This document shows positions 12,252 to 37,873 of a stretch of 40,470 nucleotides of DNA, one piece after another. The notes beneath the pieces were generated by a model that was not told the origin of the DNA, did no database searches, and saw only the letters and a program-made list of their open reading frames with translations. The DNA is from a virus. Position numbers and translations under genes: made by a program. The stretch lies in UHGV virus genome UHGV-0078430, one strand, 5' to 3'. The stretch's first letter is position 1. Each line of letters begins with the position of its first letter.

Positions 12252-14687
12252 CTATTCCATCTCGTCCATTCTCTTCATGACCATTGCGATATTCCGTCGT
12301 TGAAGCGCCGCCTCCATCACCAGAGCCTCCTCATATCGGATGCCGTATTTCTCACCGACAACGTAAGATTCAGCTATCAGCTTTTCATGCGCTGGTTCGG
12401 TCATGTTCCACAGCTCTGGTGAAACCTGTTTCCCATCGTCATCATAAACCGCTGGCACGACTTCATACACAGCAGGGACTGATTCATAAACAGCGGGAAT
12501 GGTTTCTTCTGGGTCGTAGCAAAAGAAAGCAAAACTATGAGGATCAAGGCCGTGGCGTTCAAAAGCCTCCTTGGCACGCTGAGCAATAATTCCAAAGTGC
12601 CAACGAGCACCGTCATCACCCTTGGCCTCTATCCTGTCGATAAACTGGAACTGCACGAAATCTACTTCCGCCCAGGCGTCCAGGATAATATCGGCATACG
12701 AGTCTTCCATCAGCCTGGGATCGGATACCGCCTCTGGCTCGAGGGACCCACGTGCCAGCATGACTGGACGTGATTTTTGTAGCTCATCGGATGTAACGGT
12801 GAACGCCGTCTGAGTGAATCCGCCAGCCCATATGGATGAGCTTGTCCCGACGCTATACGTGTTAGTCGCAACCGGCTGAACATTCCCGGTCACTCGAAGA
12901 GGCGAAAATACATCACTGACCGTAGCCGCAAATCGGGCTAACTCAGTACCCGGCGAATCCTCTGTAGAACCAGAATAGAGACGAACGCCGTTTTTACTGA
13001 ATATCGTGGTCGCAGATAAATCGTTAGCACCCTTTATCACGCCAATTCCAGCCTGCCAGTCCGCAGAACTGGGGCCTGTGACATCAGTGATGCTGTGCAG
13101 AGTTCCGCCCATCCGCCCGAACGGATCTGTAACGTTATCAAGATGCACCCCTCTTATCGTTATTTTACCAGTACTGCCGCCACCAGATACAAACCCTACA
13201 GGGCAATCCTTAAAAGTTACTCCACTTAACTTCGCGTATTTCCTGTTGATGATTGCGGCTCTGCTAACGTCTCTGCATACCAGCCCATTAATTACCGTAT
13301 CGTCCCCATTACCATACTCTCGGCCAGTCGATGTGCCACTGGTTGAGGCGGTGACAGATAAGCCATCTTCCGCGTTGGCTATCTGAATGTTAGAACCCCG
13401 GCAGTGCCGCTCTTCTATCCAGACGCCGTTTTTAAGTCGTCCGCCTTCATCACCGATAGCAACGATATTATTAAAATTAACAAATGGTGCCTTAATGTGC
13501 AGTCCGATTAACGTTGTGTAATCAGCACCAAACCGGTTTTGAACGACCGTTATGTCAGATACGTTTGCCCACGCACTCGATCCTCTTCCTTCTAAACTAC
13601 CAATCGGGCCTTGCTTGATACGAACACCCGCCCCAGGACAGCCAACGTCTCCAAAGTCAGAAACGTAGACATTAGATACTTTTGGCGCAATAGACATAAC
13701 ATCAACACCAGCCCAGGGGTTATTTGGCTCATCAAGCTGGCCGAAGTTAAATACGAAAATGTTATTAAGATGGAATGCGCGGCTGACAGATCCGTTATCT
13801 TTAATATCAATCCCATCAGCGCCGGTATTTTCTGACCAGTAACCATCAATAACGCACCCTTTGTAGCCGCCGTTCTGCAAACCCAGCCCATAGTGGGAGC
13901 AATTTTTAACCTTTAGGTTGTTGATGCTGAGACCCTCAATCCCCGCGCCGACCACCCCCTCTGTTTGTCTTACATAAGACGCAGACGTGAAATCTCCATG
14001 ATAGTTACCGTCAATGCAGATGTTGTGCAGACCTACACCATGAACTTTCGTAATGCCGTTTTGCAGCGGAGCCTTGGACCACTGGATAACGCCGTATGCC
14101 GAGTTGGTTGCATAAGCCTGAATGGTGGTTGAATTCCACCCCTGCCCACACAGGATTACGTTGTCGTAAGGAATGCGAAGAGCTGCAACGCGGATGGTCG
14201 CGGTCGAAGAGCTGAAATCAGACTCATCCATATGAACCTGATAAAGGCTTTTGGTGAAAACAATTCTTCCACCGCCAGCAGCGCTTAGTTCTGCTGCTTT
14301 TTGCATAATTTTATCGGCGTTAGATTTAGCGACAGTGATCGATACCAATCCACTTACAACACCAAATGATTCGGCTGTAACTTGAATACCTTCTAATCCA
14401 AGGTTTGTGGTAATCGCTGTCGCCAGCTTTGCCACCAGTCCATCAACGTCACCATCATCGAGCGCGTCCAGTTCGGCGTTCGCGATAAACTGCCCCAGTA
14501 CAGCCGCCATCGTCGACGGTTGGCGCAGCGCTTTACTGACCTGTGCGCTGGATGCTTTACCCGAGGAGAATCCTTTCTTCAGTGCGGTTAGCGTCTCCCA
14601 TTCCTCCTGCGAGGTAACATTTGCATTAGCATCTGTCGCAAACGCTTTAAAATCATTAGTTCCAGCCATTAAAGTAATCTCCCCCAT
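12252..14687 (-). CDS. tail fibre / tailspike protein with beta-helix-like central domain
   Basis: 811 aa, Gly/Asn/Val-rich repetitive central region typical of parallel beta-helix tailspikes, C-terminal tandem PAVYE repeats; last gene of tail module next to invertase. Confidence 0.7.
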   Translation of the reverse strand: MGEITLMAGTNDFKAFATDANANVTSQEEWETLTALKKGFSSGKASSAQVSKALRQPSTMAAVLGQFIANAELDALDDGDVDGLVAKLATAITTNLGLEGIQVTAESFGVVSGLVSITVAKSNADKIMQKAAELSAAGGGRIVFTKSLYQVHMDESDFSSSTATIRVAALRIPYDNVILCGQGWNSTTIQAYATNSAYGVIQWSKAPLQNGITKVHGVGLHNICIDGNYHGDFTSASYVRQTEGVVGAGIEGLSINNLKVKNCSHYGLGLQNGGYKGCVIDGYWSENTGADGIDIKDNGSVSRAFHLNNIFVFNFGQLDEPNNPWAGVDVMSIAPKVSNVYVSDFGDVGCPGAGVRIKQGPIGSLEGRGSSAWANVSDITVVQNRFGADYTTLIGLHIKAPFVNFNNIVAIGDEGGRLKNGVWIEERHCRGSNIQIANAEDGLSVTASTSGTSTGREYGNGDDTVINGLVCRDVSRAAIINRKYAKLSGVTFKDCPVGFVSGGGSTGKITIRGVHLDNVTDPFGRMGGTLHSITDVTGPSSADWQAGIGVIKGANDLSATTIFSKNGVRLYSGSTEDSPGTELARFAATVSDVFSPLRVTGNVQPVATNTYSVGTSSSIWAGGFTQTAFTVTSDELQKSRPVMLARGSLEPEAVSDPRLMEDSYADIILDAWAEVDFVQFQFIDRIEAKGDDGARWHFGIIAQRAKEAFERHGLDPHSFAFFCYDPEETIPAVYESVPAVYEVVPAVYDDDGKQVSPELWNMTEPAHEKLIAESYVVGEKYGIRYEEALVMEAALQRRNIAMVMKRMDEME

Positions 14688-15349: not shown

Positions 15350-16545
15350 GAGGTCACCGTGATACTGATATTCGCGGTGCTACAGGACGCTAAAGCATCA
15401 TAGGCAATATCAATGTTTGATGCCGATACGCTGCCAGACGACTTACCGATCAGCAGGTCGGTAATATCGTAATAGCGGGCATTCCCGCCGCTCACAACGC
15501 CGAGGTTTGCCGGGGAATAAATACGGCTCAGCAGAACGTCGTCGCCAATTGTTAGGCCATTTATATAATCGGCAACAGCCTGTTTAATCTGCTCGCCGAT
15601 TTGAGAGGTATAGCCGGTAAAAACTTTCAGGGTAATGGCTACGAAAATTGGCACATCGGTAGAGCGCGAAAAACTGATGACGTGAGGATTACCATAAGTA
15701 TCCGGCACTGTGACAGAAGTTTTACCGTAAGTTGCGGTTCCCTGCCCTTTATTCCCCCTGATGGTCTGGGCTATCTCGGTAACATCCCCTCCATCGACGA
15801 TGGCGGAAATAGAGTGTGGCGGCAGCCCGTTGCTGTCGGTTGCCCCAGTGTCGTTCTCATATAGTTTGTGACGTGTCACGCCAGCAACATTAGCGATAGC
15901 ACCGTCGACACCTTCAAACGGTGTGATCGATGGTAGCGCGACGCTTTGCCCCTGCCGAATGCGCAGCTCTGCGTCGGTTTCGGCTGGTGAACCGACAGTA
16001 GCCGCAACTGGATTGGTTACCGACACCCAACCTCGGGTCGGGGTGTTGATAGTGGTAATAGTCCCGGCCAGCGCCGCAACCGAACCGCTATTCGCACATG
16101 TGGCCGTCACCAGCACAGTACCATCAACGCCGATCGCCACACTCGCTGGAAAATTCCAGATAATGCCGTTTTTATCCCGTGCGGAGCCATTCGTGATAGT
16201 CGTGCCTGCCGTACCGGTTAACAGAAGGTCAGCAGTAGAGTTTGTCGCTACTTTTCGCGTGATCCCGTTAATTTTCACATTGCTGCTAAGCGCTGCGGCC
16301 TGCGCTGTCGTCGGTGAAAAAGAGTTGTAGATCCCGATAGCGGTGTTGTTAGCGTCATGCACGGCAAGAGCCACCAGCGCGACCATCTGCCCGTCTTTGC
16401 TGTCTGGTTCGAGGTAGGCATCACTACCGTAAATCTGCCTGAAATAGCTGGTCAGTGTATCTAGGATTGTCTGGTAATCAGGCGCACTAATCCCCTGGGC
16501 GGTTACCGTTGCCGATAGCCCCAGCGTGTCGAGGTTCAAAGCCAT
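15346..16545 (-). CDS. baseplate J-like protein
   Basis: 399 aa; position after W-like gene and before I-like gene; N-terminal region resembles baseplate J family. Confidence 0.65.
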   Translation of the reverse strand: MALNLDTLGLSATVTAQGISAPDYQTILDTLTSYFRQIYGSDAYLEPDSKDGQMVALVALAVHDANNTAIGIYNSFSPTTAQAAALSSNVKINGITRKVATNSTADLLLTGTAGTTITNGSARDKNGIIWNFPASVAIGVDGTVLVTATCANSGSVAALAGTITTINTPTRGWVSVTNPVAATVGSPAETDAELRIRQGQSVALPSITPFEGVDGAIANVAGVTRHKLYENDTGATDSNGLPPHSISAIVDGGDVTEIAQTIRGNKGQGTATYGKTSVTVPDTYGNPHVISFSRSTDVPIFVAITLKVFTGYTSQIGEQIKQAVADYINGLTIGDDVLLSRIYSPANLGVVSGGNARYYDITDLLIGKSSGSVSASNIDIAYDALASCSTANISITVTS

Positions 16546-16899
16546 TTATGCCTCGCTTGTTACAGTCGTCTGGCCGTAGATTGTGTCAATGGAGGAAGTG
16601 AAGGTGACGCGACGGCTGGTGCCGTCATAATTGGTATCGAAGGAAAGAATCGACAGAACGCCCGGTGTATCCTGTATGCGTTCGCGTATAGCCAGGATGT
16701 AGACATCTGATCGCTGCTTCCCAAGCACTGACTGAACATACGGCGTGCCTTCCGTCAGATCGAGAAACCACTGACCGCGCCACAGCTCGAAACGGGTTTT
16801 TACGGCCTGGGCGACACATTCCGGACTGTCGATAAGGAAAGTATCGTCACCCTGGCCGAAAGTGTAATCGCCTTCAGTATCTTCGCGACGGTATCGCAT
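16546..16899 (-). CDS. baseplate wedge protein (gpW / Mu gp46-like)
   Basis: 117 aa, between V-like and J-like genes. Confidence 0.55.
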   Translation of the reverse strand: MRYRREDTEGDYTFGQGDDTFLIDSPECVAQAVKTRFELWRGQWFLDLTEGTPYVQSVLGKQRSDVYILAIRERIQDTPGVLSILSFDTNYDGTSRRVTFTSSIDTIYGQTTVTSEA

Positions 16900-17639
16900 T
16901 ATTGCGGCCCTCCGGTAGTTCCCCCGCCAGTCTGTACTCCGCCATGTTTATGCGTGGCGACACTGATACCAGAAGCTGTTACGTCATTCGTTACCGTCAC
17001 CGGCCCAAGCATCGTCGCAGTACCGCCGCTTTCGCCCATTCCCTGAGACAAGTTGCCATTAATCGTTACGTTGCCGTTCAGCGTGATAGTCGGGGATGTG
17101 ATTGTCGTTCCACCTTCAGCCGTAGCTGTAAGCTGGCCCGGTGTTTTAATGGTGATGTTATGTCCTGCGGCGACTTCTACAAACGCCGCACCATCATCGG
17201 TTCGCAGCTGCGCGGCGCTGGTACTGATACCGCTGATTTTCCGTGCTTGCGACTGCGGGCCAACGATGGCGAACGCATCAGATAAGTCATGCTGGCGCGG
17301 GTCGACGGTCTCCTGAACGCCGCCGCTCTGCCACCAAAAATCGATGCAACGGTCAGCAAAAATCAGGAGGCACTCGTCGCCTTCTTTTACCGGAAAGGTC
17401 AGCGTGCAACCGCCGCCGCGCGGGAAGATGACCGGCACATCCACCAGCGGTTTTAATTCGGTGGATCCATCGCCAACAATACCGCGTAGCGCCACCTCTA
17501 CTGTGCAGGTAACAGTCTCAGGATCGAACGACTGAATGATGCCGGGCATCGCTACGCGCATCTGGGTCGACACCGAATCGGCAATGGCCTGCGCGGTCTG
17601 CTGCTCACCGCCGATCTGTGATTGAGTTGGAATTGGCAT
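16899..17639 (-). CDS. baseplate assembly protein V-like (central spike)
   Basis: 246 aa; Gly/Thr-rich C-terminal region with HKH motif (SVATHKHGG) reminiscent of spike-apex metal-binding motif; position after hub gene. Confidence 0.65.
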   Translation of the reverse strand: MPIPTQSQIGGEQQTAQAIADSVSTQMRVAMPGIIQSFDPETVTCTVEVALRGIVGDGSTELKPLVDVPVIFPRGGGCTLTFPVKEGDECLLIFADRCIDFWWQSGGVQETVDPRQHDLSDAFAIVGPQSQARKISGISTSAAQLRTDDGAAFVEVAAGHNITIKTPGQLTATAEGGTTITSPTITLNGNVTINGNLSQGMGESGGTATMLGPVTVTNDVTASGISVATHKHGGVQTGGGTTGGPQ

Positions 17640-17650
17640 AAAACCCCCAT

Positions 17651-17674
17651 AAAAAAACCAGCCGAAGCTGGTTT
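17651..17674 (-). terminator. Rho-independent terminator
   Basis: minus strand stem aaaccagc/gctggttt with 4-nt loop followed by U-run (plus-strand A7 at 17651-17657); lies just upstream of V gene. Confidence 0.45.
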
Positions 17675-17861
17675 GGTATCAATTATCTCTTAGTAACTAA
17701 GCTACATCAGTGTGAAGTAAGGCTTTTCCGCTGCAATGGCACACATTCACAAGGTGTATTAGGATATGTTTGCAACAAGTAAGCATTGAAAATCAATTTC
17801 AGCCATGAAGCCGCCATAGAGTGGACCTGCACCATCGCATTATTGACTACAGGAGTAACAA

Positions 17862-18152
17862 ATGGGATTTAGATTTCGTAAAAGAATCCGGATTGCGCCC
17901 GGACTCGCGATCAACATTAGTAAAAGCGGAGTAAGCACTTCAATTGGTGGTAAAGGTTCCACCATTAACATCGGGAAAAAAGGCGTAAAGATGACAAATG
18001 GCCTTCCCGGCACGGGGCTGTCGCATACCACTAACCTTTACTCTCCCGGGAAATCGACAGAAAAAAAACAACTTACTCATAAGCAAAAAATAATTAGAAA
18101 CATCCTGTTCGTAATTATTGTGTTTATTATAATTAAAGCTCAATATTTTTGA
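17862..18152 (+). CDS. DUF4236-like protein with C-terminal hydrophobic helix (moron)
   Basis: N-terminus MGFRFRKRIRIAPGLAINISKSGVSTSIGGKG...GLPGTGLS matches my recollection of the DUF4236 signature; opposite strand to surrounding tail genes; lower-GC local context. Confidence 0.6.
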   Translation: MGFRFRKRIRIAPGLAINISKSGVSTSIGGKGSTINIGKKGVKMTNGLPGTGLSHTTNLYSPGKSTEKKQLTHKQKIIRNILFVIIVFIIIKAQYF

Positions 18153-18157
18153 CGCAT

Positions 18158-18176
18158 GCCCGCCTATCTGGCGGGC
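18158..18176 (+). terminator. terminator hairpin between convergent moron genes
   Basis: gcccgcc-tatct-ggcgggc followed by tatttt. Confidence 0.4.
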
Positions 18177-18520
18177 TATTTTACTTTTCGGCAGTCGTAT
18201 GTTGCATACTGACGCGGCGAATCCATGCTGGCTTGCAACCACTGTGCGTTGAGAATGGCTTTGCCGTTTCGATTGATGTACTCAAGACCAACCCATCTTC
18301 CAGGCTGATCGGTAGCCATACGCCAATCCATCTTGATATTGTTATAATCGCCTTTGTTTTTCAGGAAGGTGATTTTTTGCATTTCTGGCTTTGCGCCATT
18401 GATTCTGGCTAAGCCATCATCTGCCCAATGGATTTTAAAATCACCACATTGCTGATCCGCAAAAGCGGGTGCTGATATAAGCACCGCGAACACGGTAACA
18501 GTGCAAAGTAAATGTCTCAC
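18176..18520 (-). CDS. secreted/periplasmic protein of unknown function (moron)
   Basis: 114 aa with N-terminal signal peptide (MRHLLCTVTVFAVLISAPAFA), two Cys in mature part; inserted between baseplate genes. Confidence 0.5.
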   Translation of the reverse strand: MRHLLCTVTVFAVLISAPAFADQQCGDFKIHWADDGLARINGAKPEMQKITFLKNKGDYNNIKMDWRMATDQPGRWVGLEYINRNGKAILNAQWLQASMDSPRQYATYDCRKVK

Positions 18521-18532
18521 GGCCCCACCTCA

Positions 18533-19597
18533 CTAATTCGTCGTCCCTTGCATTGCTTTCGGGCTATAAAGATCACGAGCGCCACGCGCAAAACACATCA
18601 AATCCATGTACCACGCCTGACCTCTGGTGTCGCCAGTATAGTCGATAGCTTTGACGATATAAACGCCATCCGTCGCAATGCTGGCAGCCTGTGACGTCGT
18701 GCCGGTCAGCACACGGTTGCCGTTCTCTTCTGTTTCGGTGATACGCCCGGGCGACTGTGCTATTTCGCTATTGCCGAGCGTGGCGCGGTACACCGAAGCC
18801 TGATCGAGCTGGATAAGACCATTAATACGGATGTTTGGGTTTATCAGGCACCGCACGTTTACTCCGCCGCCCATCGTTTGTTGCGGCATACCGATCAGGC
18901 CAGTATTGGCATTCAACACAATGGCTTCGTGAATATATTTATCCTCCGGCACCATCTGGACCTGACCATCCACCAGTTGCCATGTCGCTTTGCACTGCGC
19001 AGCAATATTATCCATCACGTTGCGGCTGGATGAGTAAATCGCGCGGCCACGAGGAAACACGGTATCAGGAAAATCGCCGGTAATGCCCTGTGTCACGCCG
19101 AACGCGTTGAAATCCTGCATCGTCGCCCGGTGCAGATCCGCAACGGTATAGCCAGCGGCAAGCGTGGTGATGGTAGTCGCGTAGAGGAACGCTTCGTGGT
19201 TACTGATGGCCTGAATCAGCACCCAGGAATCGGTGATGTTGTCCTTCCCGGTGACGGTGAAGCGAATATCACCGTCAAATATCAGGCCGTAGTTCTGACC
19301 GTTCACCTGCCCTACCTGGTCTGGTGAAATCTCCCGGGCGACACCAACCTGGCTCGCATCAACATCCGGCGCAATACCGTCATACCCGGCAATGATGCGA
19401 ATTTTTGCAAACTCCTGCCCCAGTATCTTGTTCGTGGTATCGGTCGAAAGGTTGTAAATTTTCACGTTTGCCACGCGCGGCCAGCGTGTATCTGCCCACT
19501 CGATCTGGAACGTGACCTTAAAATCAGACAGGGAAATACCCTGCCCGTTCTGGTCCAACAGCTGCAACTCAAAATGGCGCATCCAGTTAAGAGACAT
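18533..19597 (-). CDS. putative baseplate hub protein (Mu gp44 / P2 gpD-like by position)
   Basis: 354 aa; located between tape-measure-proximal genes and V-like gene. Confidence 0.5.
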   Translation of the reverse strand: MSLNWMRHFELQLLDQNGQGISLSDFKVTFQIEWADTRWPRVANVKIYNLSTDTTNKILGQEFAKIRIIAGYDGIAPDVDASQVGVAREISPDQVGQVNGQNYGLIFDGDIRFTVTGKDNITDSWVLIQAISNHEAFLYATTITTLAAGYTVADLHRATMQDFNAFGVTQGITGDFPDTVFPRGRAIYSSSRNVMDNIAAQCKATWQLVDGQVQMVPEDKYIHEAIVLNANTGLIGMPQQTMGGGVNVRCLINPNIRINGLIQLDQASVYRATLGNSEIAQSPGRITETEENGNRVLTGTTSQAASIATDGVYIVKAIDYTGDTRGQAWYMDLMCFARGARDLYSPKAMQGTTN

Positions 19598-19599
19598 TT

Positions 19600-19905
19600 C
19601 TACTCCTGCACGAAAATGAGGTGGCTGTATGTGCCGAGGTTGGTTTTGGTGGGCTCGTCTGGTGCGCCCTTATCGGTCGCCACCACCAGCGCACCATCAA
19701 TGCCAAGCTGTGGAAATTGTCGTAAAAGGTTCACGCCGGTCAGTAGAGGTACGCCAGAGAGAAGCGCGGCACCGCCGCTATCCATCACGTCCATAATCCA
19801 ACCAGCCGCATCGCGCCAGATGATCCTGAGCGTATACGTAGTATTGCCCAGCAAAACGCGGAACTGCTGATTGTCAGGAGAAAGCGGTATTTCGTTAAAC
19901 TGCAT
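19600..19905 (-). CDS. tail-associated protein, unknown function
   Basis: 101-aa ORF tightly packed in tail operon. Confidence 0.45.
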   Translation of the reverse strand: MQFNEIPLSPDNQQFRVLLGNTTYTLRIIWRDAAGWIMDVMDSGGAALLSGVPLLTGVNLLRQFPQLGIDGALVVATDKGAPDEPTKTNLGTYSHLIFVQE

Positions 19906-19906
19906 A

Positions 19907-20509
19907 TCATCCCCCGAATGCTGATGTAACGCTTCCGCCCAGCTGGCTCAGCAAAGATTCGTTTGGCGGTGTAGTGGATTTCGTCCCGGAATTTTGCACC
20001 GCCGATGTGCTGACGCCATCCTGCATATCTGATTTATCAGCAACGCTAACGCTCTGCGTTTGCGACATGATCACTTCACGCAGGGTAAGCGTGCAGTTCA
20101 GCACGTTCTCGCTGGTTTTGTCCGTTGTCACCTCGATGGCTCTCACCAGCATATTGCTGTACACCCGCTTCCCGGTCACCACATCGAACGGCACCCGGGA
20201 GGACTGGAGATCCAGCAGTTGCTGATAGGTCTCTTTCGGGCTCAGTCCGGCGCTGAGGCCGATTGAAGATGTATCAATGAAGTCCAGCAACGAACCGCCC
20301 CCAGCGAAGCCGCATTCCATTGTGACTTCGCTGGGGCGCTTATACGCATGATCGGCGATGAAACCCGAGGCGCTATTCGTTGTTGGCTTCTCCACCGGGT
20401 GCTCAGTAATTTCGAGCGCATCAGAATGCTTTTCGGAAACGACCACGCTGGGGATCAGCAGGCCAATTCGCCGTGATTGCTGGCGAAAAATCGCTGATAA
20501 AATATCCAT
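19907..20509 (-). CDS. tail-associated protein, unknown function
   Basis: 200-aa ORF immediately downstream of tape measure gene. Confidence 0.45.
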   Translation of the reverse strand: MDILSAIFRQQSRRIGLLIPSVVVSEKHSDALEITEHPVEKPTTNSASGFIADHAYKRPSEVTMECGFAGGGSLLDFIDTSSIGLSAGLSPKETYQQLLDLQSSRVPFDVVTGKRVYSNMLVRAIEVTTDKTSENVLNCTLTLREVIMSQTQSVSVADKSDMQDGVSTSAVQNSGTKSTTPPNESLLSQLGGSVTSAFGG

Positions 20510-22776
20510 TATCTCGGTCCTGCGGGGAGTTGCTGGGTTAACTGTGAATTCACACCCTTTTGACGGTCAACAGTCAAACGGGCAGCTTCGCGAGGATCGG
20601 AAACGCCGTGGATGTTAATGTTCGTTTCCTGCTGAATCACCGGGGCGCTGGTGGGCATATTGCTCATTACTTTCGGAATGTAATTGCGCGTTTCCTGCGG
20701 CATTAGCCCCATTCCATAACGTTGAACGTTCCCGATTCCCCAGTTATATGATGCAAGTGCTTTGCTAAGGTCTCCGCCGTTCTGCCGCAATAGCTGGCTA
20801 AGGTACTTAGCGGCTGCCTGAGCTGACTTTTCCGGGTCGAACACATCGTTACCACGCAGGCCCATGTCTCGCGCCGTGCCATCCATGAACTGGAACAGCC
20901 CCTTTGCACCCGCGCCGGACATGGCGAACTGGTTACCACCTGACTCGGTTATCGCCACACTTTTCAATAGACCAGCTGGAAGTTGATAAAGCGACTCAAG
21001 TTTATTGAACATTGGCCCCATCCAGTCGAGCAATACTTTGCCCTGGGCTGTGGCCTGTGGACGTTTGACTGATTGCGCAAACTGGGAGGGGTCACCCGAT
21101 ATATTTGGAGAGATTTCAGCAGCTCCAGCCGGGGAGAAAAATAAATTACCGATTTTGGCAATCCCGTCTGAGATTTTTTCAAGATAACCATTAGCAGCCT
21201 GCTGACGGTTTTTTATTTCATCTCTTTCATGCGGGGCAATTTCATTACTACGAACATGCTGTTCCGCCCCGGGAATGTCAGGCTGAACATTATCGCCATA
21301 AACGACGCCATTGCTTTGCGCCTGACGAATAATCTTACCTGGGCCACCATGCAGCCAATCCATCCATGCGGGCCATTCTCTTACCTCGCTAACATCTTTT
21401 CGCCCAAGGTCGGTTTTGATGCCAACCGTAGCAAGAGCATCACCAATGTTCCTTTTGGTATAGTCCAAAGATGATTTAGCACTGGCTTTTATGTTTTCAC
21501 GATCTGAAACCAGGTAACCAGCATACGCTCCCCATAATTTAAGCCATGGAGGTATCGGAAGACCGGATATTTTTGCGAATGCTCCCAATACTTTTGTTAC
21601 CCATACCCCAGCGATGAAAGTAGCCAAAATTTCCAGCGAGTTCTGCCATCCACCAACAGAATCTTTCAGCCCCAGAAGCTTATCGCGCAGCCAGAGAATT
21701 GCCTTTTTCGCCTTTTCTATTGCAGGCTCCCACTTGGACCAGTCAATCAGGCTTTTACCGCCTTCTTTCCACGTCTGATAATCGTCATAGAGTAATCCGA
21801 TCGCCAGAATCAGCGTGGTGATAATTCCAATCGGGGATTTCAGGAACGCAGAATTAAGCAGACGCCATGCGACAAGTAGAGCACCGAATATTTTCAGCAG
21901 ATTTTTACTGCCATCGTCAAGACGCTTCCACCAGTCAATGACAGAGCCAGCGCCCTGTATGAGCCGCCACGCCATTCGCGTGAAGGCGTTCGCAAGCCAG
22001 ATCACGCCTTTAATAACTCTGGTCAGCGTCTCTTCAATCTTCGGGAAGTTGTCGAGGATGCGCCGCCGCAGGCTGTCCAGCGAACCAGCAAGACCACCAG
22101 CGAGGTTTGAGCCGATCTTGTCCCGCATAATGCCGAACAGCGACGTAAGCCCGCGCATGGACGTCATGAATTTATTGGACTGCACAGCCGCCTTATCAGC
22201 GTTGAACCCAGTCTTTTGCAGCATAGACTGGTAATCGGCGGTAAAGCCATTCATGCCGCGCCGCATCGCCATCAGCGTGTTTTCATCGATGCCAAGCATC
22301 TGCGCGTATTGCTTCGCGCGGTAATACGGCATGTTGTTGAGCTTTTGCCCAACGCCAGTAAAGATGGCCGCAGTATCACGCATCTTTCCGCTGGCATCTC
22401 GGGTCTGGACACCAAGACGGTTCAGGAAGCCTTCCGCCCCCGGATTGCTACGCATGAAACCGGCCAGCCCTTCGAGGGAGGACATGGCCGACTCGGCGCT
22501 GGCACCGGTTTGCGACGCGGCATAGCCCAGCGCTTTGATGCCCTGGACGCTGGCCCCCGTCCGTTGGGATGCCCAGTAAATTTTATCCAGACCATTCGCG
22601 ATCTGGGTGGTAAATCCGACAATGCTCAGCGCTGCGCCTTCCACCACCGCGCCGACCTTCAGAACGTTTGCGGTAACGCCTTTCAGCACGGCTTCAAACT
22701 TATTAGCGCCAGCCTGATCGATATCGAATCCCAGCGAAACAAGGAAGTCTTTAATCGTATCTGCGTTACCGCTCAT
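20509..22776 (-). CDS. tail tape measure protein with C-terminal lytic transglycosylase (SLT) domain
   Basis: 755 aa; hydrophobic segments; C-terminal ITESGGNQFAMSGAGAKGLFQFMDGTA motif characteristic of SLT-type transglycosylases; preceded by chaperone gene with frameshift site. Confidence 0.75.
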   Translation of the reverse strand: MSGNADTIKDFLVSLGFDIDQAGANKFEAVLKGVTANVLKVGAVVEGAALSIVGFTTQIANGLDKIYWASQRTGASVQGIKALGYAASQTGASAESAMSSLEGLAGFMRSNPGAEGFLNRLGVQTRDASGKMRDTAAIFTGVGQKLNNMPYYRAKQYAQMLGIDENTLMAMRRGMNGFTADYQSMLQKTGFNADKAAVQSNKFMTSMRGLTSLFGIMRDKIGSNLAGGLAGSLDSLRRRILDNFPKIEETLTRVIKGVIWLANAFTRMAWRLIQGAGSVIDWWKRLDDGSKNLLKIFGALLVAWRLLNSAFLKSPIGIITTLILAIGLLYDDYQTWKEGGKSLIDWSKWEPAIEKAKKAILWLRDKLLGLKDSVGGWQNSLEILATFIAGVWVTKVLGAFAKISGLPIPPWLKLWGAYAGYLVSDRENIKASAKSSLDYTKRNIGDALATVGIKTDLGRKDVSEVREWPAWMDWLHGGPGKIIRQAQSNGVVYGDNVQPDIPGAEQHVRSNEIAPHERDEIKNRQQAANGYLEKISDGIAKIGNLFFSPAGAAEISPNISGDPSQFAQSVKRPQATAQGKVLLDWMGPMFNKLESLYQLPAGLLKSVAITESGGNQFAMSGAGAKGLFQFMDGTARDMGLRGNDVFDPEKSAQAAAKYLSQLLRQNGGDLSKALASYNWGIGNVQRYGMGLMPQETRNYIPKVMSNMPTSAPVIQQETNINIHGVSDPREAARLTVDRQKGVNSQLTQQLPAGPR

Positions 22777-35538: not shown

Positions 35539-35561
35539 AAAAAAGCCCCGCATCGCGAGGC
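35539..35561 (-). terminator. Rho-independent terminator after lysis cassette
   Basis: minus strand gcctcgc-gat-gcggggc followed by U6. Confidence 0.45.
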
Positions 35562-35593
35562 TCATTAAATTGACTTTGTGATTTGCAAAAAAA

Positions 35594-36922: not shown

Positions 36923-36946
36923 AAAAAAGCCCACGGCGCGGTGGGC
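36923..36946 (-). terminator. Rho-independent terminator
   Basis: minus strand gcccac-cgcgcc-gtgggc followed by U6. Confidence 0.45.
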
Positions 36947-36996: not shown

Positions 36997-37071
36997 TGGC
37001 GGGACAGGAAGGATTCGAACCTTCGACCAATCGGTTAACAGCCGATCTCACAACCTCTGTGCTTCTGACCC
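36997..37071 (-). tRNA. tRNA-Asn-like (anticodon GUU), possibly phage-borne or degenerate
   Basis: manual cloverleaf: acceptor GGGTCAG/CTGTCCC (one T-T mismatch), D-arm with GG, anticodon stem ATCGG/CCGAT with loop CTGTTAA, T-arm GAAGG-TTCGAAT-CCTTC, encoded CCA. Confidence 0.45.
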
Positions 37072-37078
37072 TGAATGC

Positions 37079-37105
37079 AAAAAGCCCCTGCATTTCTGCA
37101 AGGGC
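37079..37105 (-). terminator. tR'-like terminator downstream of Q-position gene
   Basis: minus strand gcccttgca-gaaa-tgcaggggc followed by U5. Confidence 0.45.
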
Positions 37106-37189
37106 TTAAATGTGGTTCACACCGCTCCGCGCAAGGCATCTCCGCTGGTGGGTAAGCTCTTTCGCCTTTGACGTCCGAGCATATCTGAA

Positions 37190-37873
37190 TTATGCAGTTT
37201 CAAAACTCGTTTTCAAGTCTTTTTCGCAAGTTTTTGCATTTTCGAAGCCAAATTCATCTTTTAACGTGAAGAAGACAGCAGAATTAAACAACTCAATACA
37301 CCAGCGCACGCGGTCAATACATTGCTTTTCGGTCAGAAACGGCGCGTAGTAATATTGCATCCACCGTGCCATGTCATTAATGGTTTTCCTCCAGGTGTAA
37401 TAGTCCTTCCCTATCTCATACACGGGATTCCCCGGCTTGAAGGACTTCAGGATGATAGCCTCCATGAATGCAGCTTCCTCTTGATCCCCGGCGTTGCCGA
37501 TCAGGTCAGAAAGTGATTTCTTCGGCCAGATGATGGCTTTAGCCTGCTCAAACAACGCATCTCCGGTATAGCCAATTTTACGCAGACCAGACAGTACGGT
37601 AGCGATCCGCTCCTGCTGTTCGCCAGTCCAGCCGGTCAATATCATTGACCACATACCACCGCCACCTGAAAGGTGTTCTATTCCGCTGCCTCCATACATG
37701 CCGCCCCAGTGGTTCAGCAACGAACGAACCCAACGGCTTTGCGATGGTGTCAGTCGGCGGTATTTCCCCAGGTAAGATCTGCGTGGTGCTGCTGCCAGCG
37801 TCACCCAGGCGTTTTGCGGGTTGGTACGCTCAACAGACGCTTTCTGGTAATTGTTAATATCGGTGCGTGTCAT
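37190..37873 (-). CDS. putative late-gene regulator (antiterminator Q position)
   Basis: 227-aa product from ATG overlapping rusA stop (ATGA); located between rusA and tR'-like terminator/lysis genes as Q is in lambdoid phages; family not recognised by sequence. Confidence 0.45.
   Translation of the reverse strand: MTRTDINNYQKASVERTNPQNAWVTLAAAPRRSYLGKYRRLTPSQSRWVRSLLNHWGGMYGGSGIEHLSGGGGMWSMILTGWTGEQQERIATVLSGLRKIGYTGDALFEQAKAIIWPKKSLSDLIGNAGDQEEAAFMEAIILKSFKPGNPVYEIGKDYYTWRKTINDMARWMQYYYAPFLTEKQCIDRVRWCIELFNSAVFFTLKDEFGFENAKTCEKDLKTSFETA

Follow-up and report, generated by a model that had tools for sequence, protein, structure and literature searches.

The late genes of phage lambda are controlled by Q together with pR' and tR'. 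T5 Llp, Cor of phi80, T1 and N15, and T4 Sp are exported exclusion proteins encoded beside tail genes; these proteins, and Ltp with them, block a receptor or the penetration step, either for a superinfecting phage or for progeny that meet cell debris. The exclusion moron gp15 of HK97 reportedly lies between the tail chaperone gene and the tape-measure gene. Ltp of Streptococcus phage TP-J34 is an exported exclusion protein that is likewise encoded beside tail genes (PMC3952083). Phage morons were defined for HK97 and HK022 (Juhala et al. 2000; reviewed in PMC3594210), and the gp15 moron of HK97 is credited to Cumby et al. 2012 (cited in PMC10884400). Antiviral and accessory genes gather in hotspots in P2-like phages and P4 satellites (Rousset et al. 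2022, PMC9122126), and the Z/fun hotspot of P2 adjoins a baseplate gene (bioRxiv 10.1101/2024.10.15.618418). Here we analyze a site of this general kind at positions 17651-18520 of the virus genome UHGV-0078430 (hereafter, "the window" refers to the whole stretch of 40,470 nucleotides (nt), given as one strand from 5' to 3'), where two convergent genes, one for a protein with a DUF4236 domain and one for an exported protein of 114 amino acids (aa), lie between a hub-like baseplate gene and the spike gene V.

We consider it likely that the late baseplate operon of this E. coli prophage contains a dedicated slot for accessory genes, of which the region is one occupied state, that the slot is framed by an exported-protein gene on one side and a terminator on the other, and that it is expressed along the lines set out below. 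The slot belongs to lambdoid-regulated prophages of Enterobacterales with contractile tails and a baseplate of the E217/Pam3 type. The moron is DUF4236 alone; both the signal-peptide gene and the terminator before V belong to the backbone.

The hub-to-V interval and its constant borders

The baseplate and tail operon of the window is on the (-) strand, in the order tape measure, Dit-like gene, Pam3-gp18-like plug, hub-like gene, the interval under study, V, W, J, I and tailspike. Genes were assigned from family matches and from the RefSeq annotation of the E. coli TOK-001 prophage, which is identical to the window over the 3.2 kilobases (kb) compared (16500-19700); by the same sources, the product of W is the sheath initiator. 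The features in and around the interval are as follows:

22776..20509, (-) strand: tape-measure gene with an SLT domain
18533..19597, (-) strand: hub-like baseplate gene, 354 aa (phrog_196 "baseplate hub", E 2.4e-83; Pfam E217_GP41, E 4e-6)
18176..18520, (-) strand: exported-protein gene, 114 aa, phrog_3443, GTG start
18158..18176, (+) strand: GC-rich hairpin GCCCGCC-TATCT-GGCGGGC, then TATTTTACTT
17862..18152, (+) strand: DUF4236 gene, 96 aa, antisense to the baseplate operon
17675..17861, (+) strand: 5' region of the DUF4236 cassette
17651..17674, (-) strand: intrinsic terminator AAACCAGC-TTCG-GCTGGTTT followed by TTTT, abutting the V ribosome-binding site
17644-17648: V ribosome-binding site GGGGG
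16899..17639, (-) strand: spike gene V, 246 aa (TIGR01644 phage_P2_V, phi92-spike N-terminal domain, Apex motif)

The hub-to-W stretch (3.2 kb) matches 54 complete E. coli genomes, only 23 of which are matched over >=80% of its length. In the remaining genomes the difference falls precisely on the segment from the hub gene to V, where RefSeq annotates DUF4236, Phd/Doc, "STY1065/STY2022 family phage-derived protein" and various hypotheticals. We gathered 86 loci by means of the 114-aa protein and, as a guard against circularity, 80 more by means of V; every related locus has the hub-like gene upstream of its slot. Downstream of the first gene, 158 loci hold 111 distinct sequences that fall into about 50 mutually dissimilar clusters. 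The antisense DUF4236 cassette is the commonest cargo (33 of 158 loci), and the other loci carry one of about 49 further cargo clusters or nothing. Seven slots are empty, with only 56-65 nt that make up the terminator and the ribosome-binding site. The preliminary description had proposed an insertion site inside the baseplate operon and a comparison with prophages that lack the insert, and the site is borne out by that comparison: relatives vary here, some with an empty slot (7 of 158) and others with unrelated cargo.

The left border is the gene for the 114-aa protein. It is co-oriented with the operon, the hub stop codon lies 13 nt upstream with the gene's own Shine-Dalgarno sequence GAGGTG in between, and it has no terminator of its own on the operon strand. 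Its product carries a typical signal peptide, with predicted cleavage after MRHLLCTVTVFAVLISAPAFA and before DQQ, and is modeled as a periplasmic beta-barrel that would be translated as part of the operon. A homologue with 63-96% identity directly follows the hub in four E. coli variants and in Citrobacter phage Omnitron. More broadly, 66 of the 74 V-retrieved loci that also hold the hub gene have a homologue at this position, whatever cargo comes next; in the remaining eight, another exported protein takes its place, either a lipobox lipoprotein of 233-374 aa or a signal-peptide protein of 84 aa or 158 aa. The first open reading frame (ORF) begins with a signal-like hydrophobic segment or a lipobox in every distinct hub-to-V region (123 of 123), and the 114-aa gene is present beside about 50 other cargo types as well as in empty slots. 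Judged by its position among relatives, the 114-aa gene is a constant of the backbone that lies outside the variable insert.

The same gene is neither sporadic among relatives nor an independent transcription unit, its composition being nonetheless atypical. The "two-gene moron" of the preliminary description thus stands in one half only: DUF4236 is exchangeable, compositionally foreign, antisense and equipped with its own terminator, whereas the signal-peptide gene, found in those 66 of 74 relatives, is backbone.

The exported protein diverges much faster than the hub and V; in locus L093, for instance, it is 65% identical where the hub is 98% and V is 100% identical. A profile search of 1.84 billion representatives returned only 56 relatives, which form one small family, all of them without Pfam domains. 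No sequence relatives with solved structures were found, and the 114-aa protein has no sequence or specific fold match to Llp, Cor, Sp or Ltp.

Some loci depart from the simple arrangement on this side of the slot. The barrel domain forms the C-terminus of a 296-aa lipoprotein in one group (L076-L087, e.g., L076 3398-4288), and L080-L082 have glycine at the position of the lipobox cysteine (LLSGG versus LLSGC). In L073 and L075, a fragment of the hub C-terminus is present again inside the slot, as a duplicate, and after it comes another paralogue of the exported barrel, which has diverged from the first; this suggests duplication or recombination at the left border.

The right border is the terminator before V. 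A hairpin with a T-run stands directly before the V ribosome-binding site in all 164 loci with a V start, with any cargo and in empty slots too. An alignment of its 38 distinct versions has 97.7% of cells paired, with compensatory changes in three of the seven pairs (e.g., CCCGC/GCGGG, CCAGC/GCTGG, GCCGC/GCGGC); none of 500 shuffles reaches the pairing values of the terminator, and controls slid along the alignment are 31-65% paired. There is no room for a promoter between the terminator and V. The terminator is a conserved backbone structure and the right border of the slot. The minus-strand terminator previously noted upstream of V is present (17674..17651) but is not part of an insert, as it occurs in 164 of 164 loci, empty slots included. 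Because the exported-protein and DUF4236 genes are both kept as ORFs across genera and the terminator covaries, the features of the interval are beyond chance.

Between these borders the base composition drops. The low-GC (guanine plus cytosine) stretch that had been reported between the hub-like gene and V is there and the dip is real, with a GC of 0.39-0.46 in the interval versus 0.53-0.57 in the flanks. At third codon positions (GC3) the values are 0.39 for DUF4236, 0.47 for the 114-aa gene and 0.56-0.64 for the flanking baseplate genes. Also as described previously, the minus-strand gene (18520..18176) encodes a typical signal peptide and a hairpin (18158-18176) separates the convergent genes. 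Two other minus-strand ORFs were judged spurious: one (17940..18242, 100 aa) is antisense within DUF4236, and the other (17707..17835, 42 aa) is gone where the intergenic region is shorter (Klebsiella, Hafnia).

The cargo of the relatives is diverse. Its recognizable domains include Phd/Doc (by RefSeq annotation), an EACC1-domain protein and a P22-type antirepressor, and there are several secreted or membrane proteins. PADLOC gave only weak matches on the cargo (HEPN_IX, E 0.006; SngB, E 0.003), and most of it belongs to PHROGs of unknown function, without a recognized defence domain. A two-gene cargo recurs at L025, L026, L051, L054, L087, L091, L154 and L171, with the first gene only at L009; its products are a protein of about 243-273 aa (phrog_17809) and one of about 123-140 aa (phrog_5176), the latter giving a weak match to HEPN_IX. 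Several diverged versions of this pair occupy the slot, and we regard it as a candidate toxin-antitoxin or defence pair. In L077, L090 and L023, which carry antisense cargo, a second terminator-like hairpin (CCCGC...GCGGG with a T-run) follows the exported-protein gene; two similar hairpins that bracket the cargo could be recombination substrates for cassette exchange.

A different kind of exchange is seen further along the operon. The window encodes an 811-aa tailspike with a Peptidase_S74 chaperone domain (12252-14687, (-) strand), and the otherwise near-identical TOK-001 prophage (L092 25802-28537) encodes there a short tail fibre together with an invertase and the products of fibre-assembly genes. 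This is a swap of receptor-binding proteins downstream of the same baseplate.

The DUF4236 cassette and its homologues

The plus-strand gene had been described as DUF4236-like with a C-terminal hydrophobic helix, and both features are confirmed. Its product matches Pfam PF14020 over residues 3-55 (E 1.8e-20, 73.6 bits versus a cut-off of 27), the identical protein is named DUF4236 domain-containing in RefSeq, and the AlphaFold 2 (AF2) model shows six beta strands arranged as a meander and a helix at residues 73-95. In an alignment, 36 family members share a conserved N-terminal part (about 58 residues) that is basic and rich in glycine, and a variable linker joins it to a hydrophobic helix at the C-terminus; 13 columns are invariant. 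The protein is predicted to be a tail-anchored membrane protein whose C-terminal helix spans the membrane. Relatives in Vibrio and Photobacterium have SH3 domains beyond the helix, which fits an N-in, C-out topology. Literature searches on DUF4236, PF14020 and STY1065 returned nothing relevant.

The cassette has the marks of a moron: its presence at this position is sporadic, its base composition is distinct (GC 0.39 for the gene versus 0.53-0.57 for its neighbors) and it has a terminator of its own. A ribosome-binding site, AGGAG, lies at 17851-17855. At the other end, the hairpin at 18158-18176 has a folding energy of -16.7 kcal/mol (z -4.3), and none of 200 shuffles folds as well; there is no U-tract on the (-) strand, and the last base of the hairpin overlaps the stop codon of the 114-aa gene. 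From these properties, the hairpin is best read as the intrinsic terminator of the DUF4236 transcript.

The cassette is not flanked by inverted repeats or target duplications, and an insertion of transposon or insertion-sequence (IS) type was rejected for lack of IS-like flanking repeats. Positions 17640-17710 are shared with a locus that bears other cargo. A sub-threshold Rfam match to the prophage small RNA isrK at 17652-17734 on the (-) strand (23.4 bits versus a gathering score of 50; E 0.003-0.017) was treated as chance, since it is carried mostly by the terminator hairpin, even though the whole model is covered.

Across the 33 loci that carry the cassette, DUF4236 is 96-100% identical, versus 65-100% for the exported protein, 53-100% for V and 93-100% for the hub. 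Near-identity of one gene while its neighbors diverge is the signature of a module that is shuffled among backbones. DUF4236 occurs with at least four alleles of the exported protein (65-100% identity) and also with the lipoprotein-fused form. Further away, homologues with 51-85% identity were in the same slot and antisense in all four cases sampled (Klebsiella, Hafnia and two metagenomic contigs). As a separate observation, DUF4236 is preceded on its own strand by an extra gene of 137 aa in one metagenomic relative (L189 1050-1463), whose antisense cassette thus has two genes.

Homologues with 44-46% identity (L178-L180, from Pseudomonas syringae B728a (CP000075) and relatives, and L184/L185) are also found in tail operons of unrelated long-tailed phages. 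In P. syringae B728a, the K (NlpC/P60) and J genes of a lambda-like tail have a 44%-identical homologue between them, and another homologue lies between a tail assembly chaperone and an 1886-aa tape-measure gene in a different long-tailed phage. DUF4236 homologues hence recur in the tail operons of three unrelated tail types. On these comparisons, the most economical reading is that DUF4236 is an accessory membrane protein of mobile elements.

Expression of the slot and competing explanations

The preliminary description had supposed that the insert is tolerated through Q-mediated read-through, and the gene content upstream in the late region makes this plausible. The relevant features are as follows:

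37873..37190, (-) strand: Q-like antiterminator gene, 227 aa (phrog_753 "anti-termination protein Q-like", E 1.1e-57)
37216..37189, (-) strand: pR'-like promoter, 10 of 12 matches
37107..37082, (-) strand: tR'-like terminator, 11-bp stem
36997-37071: tRNA-Asn gene in the late leader
36929-36946 and 35543-35563: further operon-strand terminators around the lysis genes

The Q-like gene is followed by the promoter, a terminator, tRNA-Asn, a second terminator, the holin/lysozyme/Rz genes, a further terminator and the structural genes, so that the lysis and structural genes are all downstream of it on the same strand. The Q-like protein matches a PHROG family and no Pfam Q family. From the gene content and this pR'/tR'-like layout, it is plausible that polymerase modified by the Q-like protein reads past the terminator before V in lytic growth.

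The scheme that we favor would work as follows. Unrelated cargo modules would be exchanged among phages between the two backbone constants; the cargo here is one DUF4236 cassette, placed antisense and equipped with a ribosome-binding site and a terminator of its own. In the lysogen, cargo promoters alone would fire; the plus-strand hairpin would halt the DUF4236 transcript before it entered the hub operon in antisense, and the backbone terminator would keep operon-strand transcription of cargo out of V, W, J and the fibre genes. Upon induction, the Q-like-modified polymerase that starts from the pR'-like promoter would pass all terminators, and late transcription, being antisense across DUF4236, would shut that gene off. 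DUF4236 is probably a lysogen-made inner-membrane factor for entry exclusion, which would keep the genomes of incoming phages out of the cell as HK97 gp15 does. The target of the exported barrel is probably at the envelope, either a receptor or the penetration step of the tail tip, as with T5 Llp, Cor and T4 Sp. These functions are supported by the predicted locations of the two proteins, by the recurrence of DUF4236 homologues in tail operons and by the fast divergence of the exported protein.

Several observations weigh against this scheme. A plus-strand scan (>=9 of 12 matches) found no consensus sigma-70 promoter upstream of DUF4236; there is only a weak -10-like TAGAGT at 17817-17822, in a block conserved with one 85%-identical cassette, so that expression of the gene in the lysogen is putative. 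Neither DUF4236 nor the 114-aa protein matches a PADLOC defence model, and neither has a specific match among solved structures. Of the nine distant DUF4236 homologues sampled, five have surroundings that are not phage-like but belong to a chromosome or to a plasmid or integrative and conjugative element (ICE), and the family is therefore not tail-specific. The dependence on Q rests on gene content and layout. Lastly, a Klebsiella locus (L173 4683-4730) has the hairpin before V but no clear T-run on the operon strand, and terminator function may not be universal beyond the sampled group of E. coli, Citrobacter and Serratia.

A more ambitious reading of the same data, which we hold only tentatively, is that the slot is a linked self-exclusion module, in which the exported protein and DUF4236 form two layers of exclusion against the penetration machinery and DUF4236 represents a new and widespread family of entry blockers linked to tail operons. 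The exported layer would sit in the periplasm or outer membrane and the DUF4236 layer in the inner membrane, and both would act on the penetration machinery, whose genes (tape measure, hub and spike) flank them. Exclusion in two layers would explain why the genes are retained inside the baseplate operon and diversify together with it. The conserved terminator would then be a built-in insulator that allows any lysogen-expressed cargo to be plugged into the late operon. If this is true, DUF4236 entry blockers serve contractile-tailed phages and lambda-like or other long-tailed phages alike.

For DUF4236 itself, the main rival to entry exclusion is a role as a membrane-active toxin or abortive-infection effector, or as one half of a toxin-antitoxin-like or holin-like system, through which a superinfected cell would die or be arrested. 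Its small size and its tail anchor in the membrane would suit such a role, the slot also carries Phd/Doc, EACC1 and HEPN-like pairs, and other family members are found in plasmid or ICE and chromosomal islands. However, DUF4236 is a single gene that has no partner in the window and no PADLOC match, and its recurrence in tail-tip, tape-measure and baseplate clusters fits a role directed at entry better. We regard the toxin explanation as rather unlikely.

It is improbable that one or both genes are working parts of tail assembly or infection, with the barrel acting in penetration or release and DUF4236 as a cofactor for assembly or injection. An exported protein comes first after the hub in 123 of 123 regions, and across several genera the 51-85%-identical homologues of DUF4236 have stayed in this slot and on the antisense strand, as would be expected from long-lasting linkage to the tail module. 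Against this, Sec export and membrane anchoring are incompatible with tail assembly in the cytoplasm; eight of 74 relatives swap the barrel for unrelated exported proteins; and DUF4236 is antisense and absent from about 80% of relatives, where unrelated cargo or nothing replaces it. Homologues that are conserved tail components, which the preliminary description had named as evidence against a moron, were found in a limited sense: the signal-peptide gene keeps its position, yet its product is exported and would not assemble into tails in the cytoplasm, which makes it an unlikely virion component. The same applies to DUF4236, as each of the two proteins is predicted to lie in a membrane or outside the cytoplasm.

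The last two explanations have very little left in their favor. A cassette without current function, as a hitch-hiker or a decaying remnant kept by linkage, would agree with the missing promoter and the silence of the literature on function, but the ORF is intact, the ribosome-binding site is strong, and the protein is 96-100% conserved in 33 loci and 44-85% across genera with its 13 invariant columns, a pattern that indicates purifying selection. Equally doubtful is a joint arrival of both genes as a two-gene moron that interrupted a contiguous hub-V operon: both genes are GC-poorer than their neighbors (GC3 0.47 and 0.39 versus 0.56-0.64) and are adjacent and convergent with a shared hairpin, but the 114-aa gene is placed for translation within the operon and also occurs with the roughly 50 other cargo types and in empty slots, DUF4236 is paired with at least four exported-protein alleles plus the lipoprotein fusion, and these differing pairings and positions imply separate histories.

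Comparison with known systems

In the literature searched, we found no description of this slot, of its covarying terminator border, of an invariably exported first gene or of an association of DUF4236 with tail operons. The slot is easy to query, as it is delimited on the left by the hub together with the exported-protein gene and on the right by the covarying terminator, which is fused to the V ribosome-binding site. The approximately 50 cargo types in the sampled loci, most of them uncharacterized, could be mined for exclusion and defence genes, as the P2/P4 hotspots were. DUF4236 gains a first contextual handle, namely its presence in the tail-tip, tape-measure or baseplate clusters of three unrelated tail architectures. 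More generally, a layout with a terminator as putative insulator shows how a late structural operon can tolerate inserts that are expressed in the lysogen.

The late region resembles that of lambda in having a Q-like gene, a promoter-like site and a strong terminator, followed by a long same-strand late operon with more intrinsic terminators. It differs in that the Q-like protein matches a PHROG family only, and the likeness is one of layout. With Llp, Cor, Sp and Ltp, the 114-aa protein shares a signal peptide, variants or replacements that are lipoproteins, tail-tip neighbors and fast divergence, and it is made with the baseplate genes. Unlike them, it belongs to a tiny family without a sequence or specific fold match to theirs, and membership in those families is not supported.

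Like the HK97 morons, DUF4236 is an extra gene in a late tail operon, sporadic in occurrence and distinct in composition, with its own terminator and a small product predicted to lie in the inner membrane. One of its homologues even occupies the position between tail chaperone and tape measure that gp15 is said to have, the likeness being one of location and of a predicted membrane helix. In contrast to HK97 gp15, the DUF4236 cassette is antisense to the operon, and no promoter was identified for it.

The hotspots of P2-like phages and P4 satellites are similar in their conserved flanks and highly variable cargo, which includes toxin-antitoxin and defence-like modules, and in their place among tail genes. 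The slot described here differs from them in lineage and site (hub to spike V, in a baseplate of E217/Pam3 type), and most of its cargo is without a recognized defence domain. It also lies within a co-transcribed operon, is closed by a conserved terminator and always begins with an exported gene. Morons and hotspots in the late operons of prophages are already known as a kind, and the present locus leaves current concepts unchanged and extends them to a new phage lineage.

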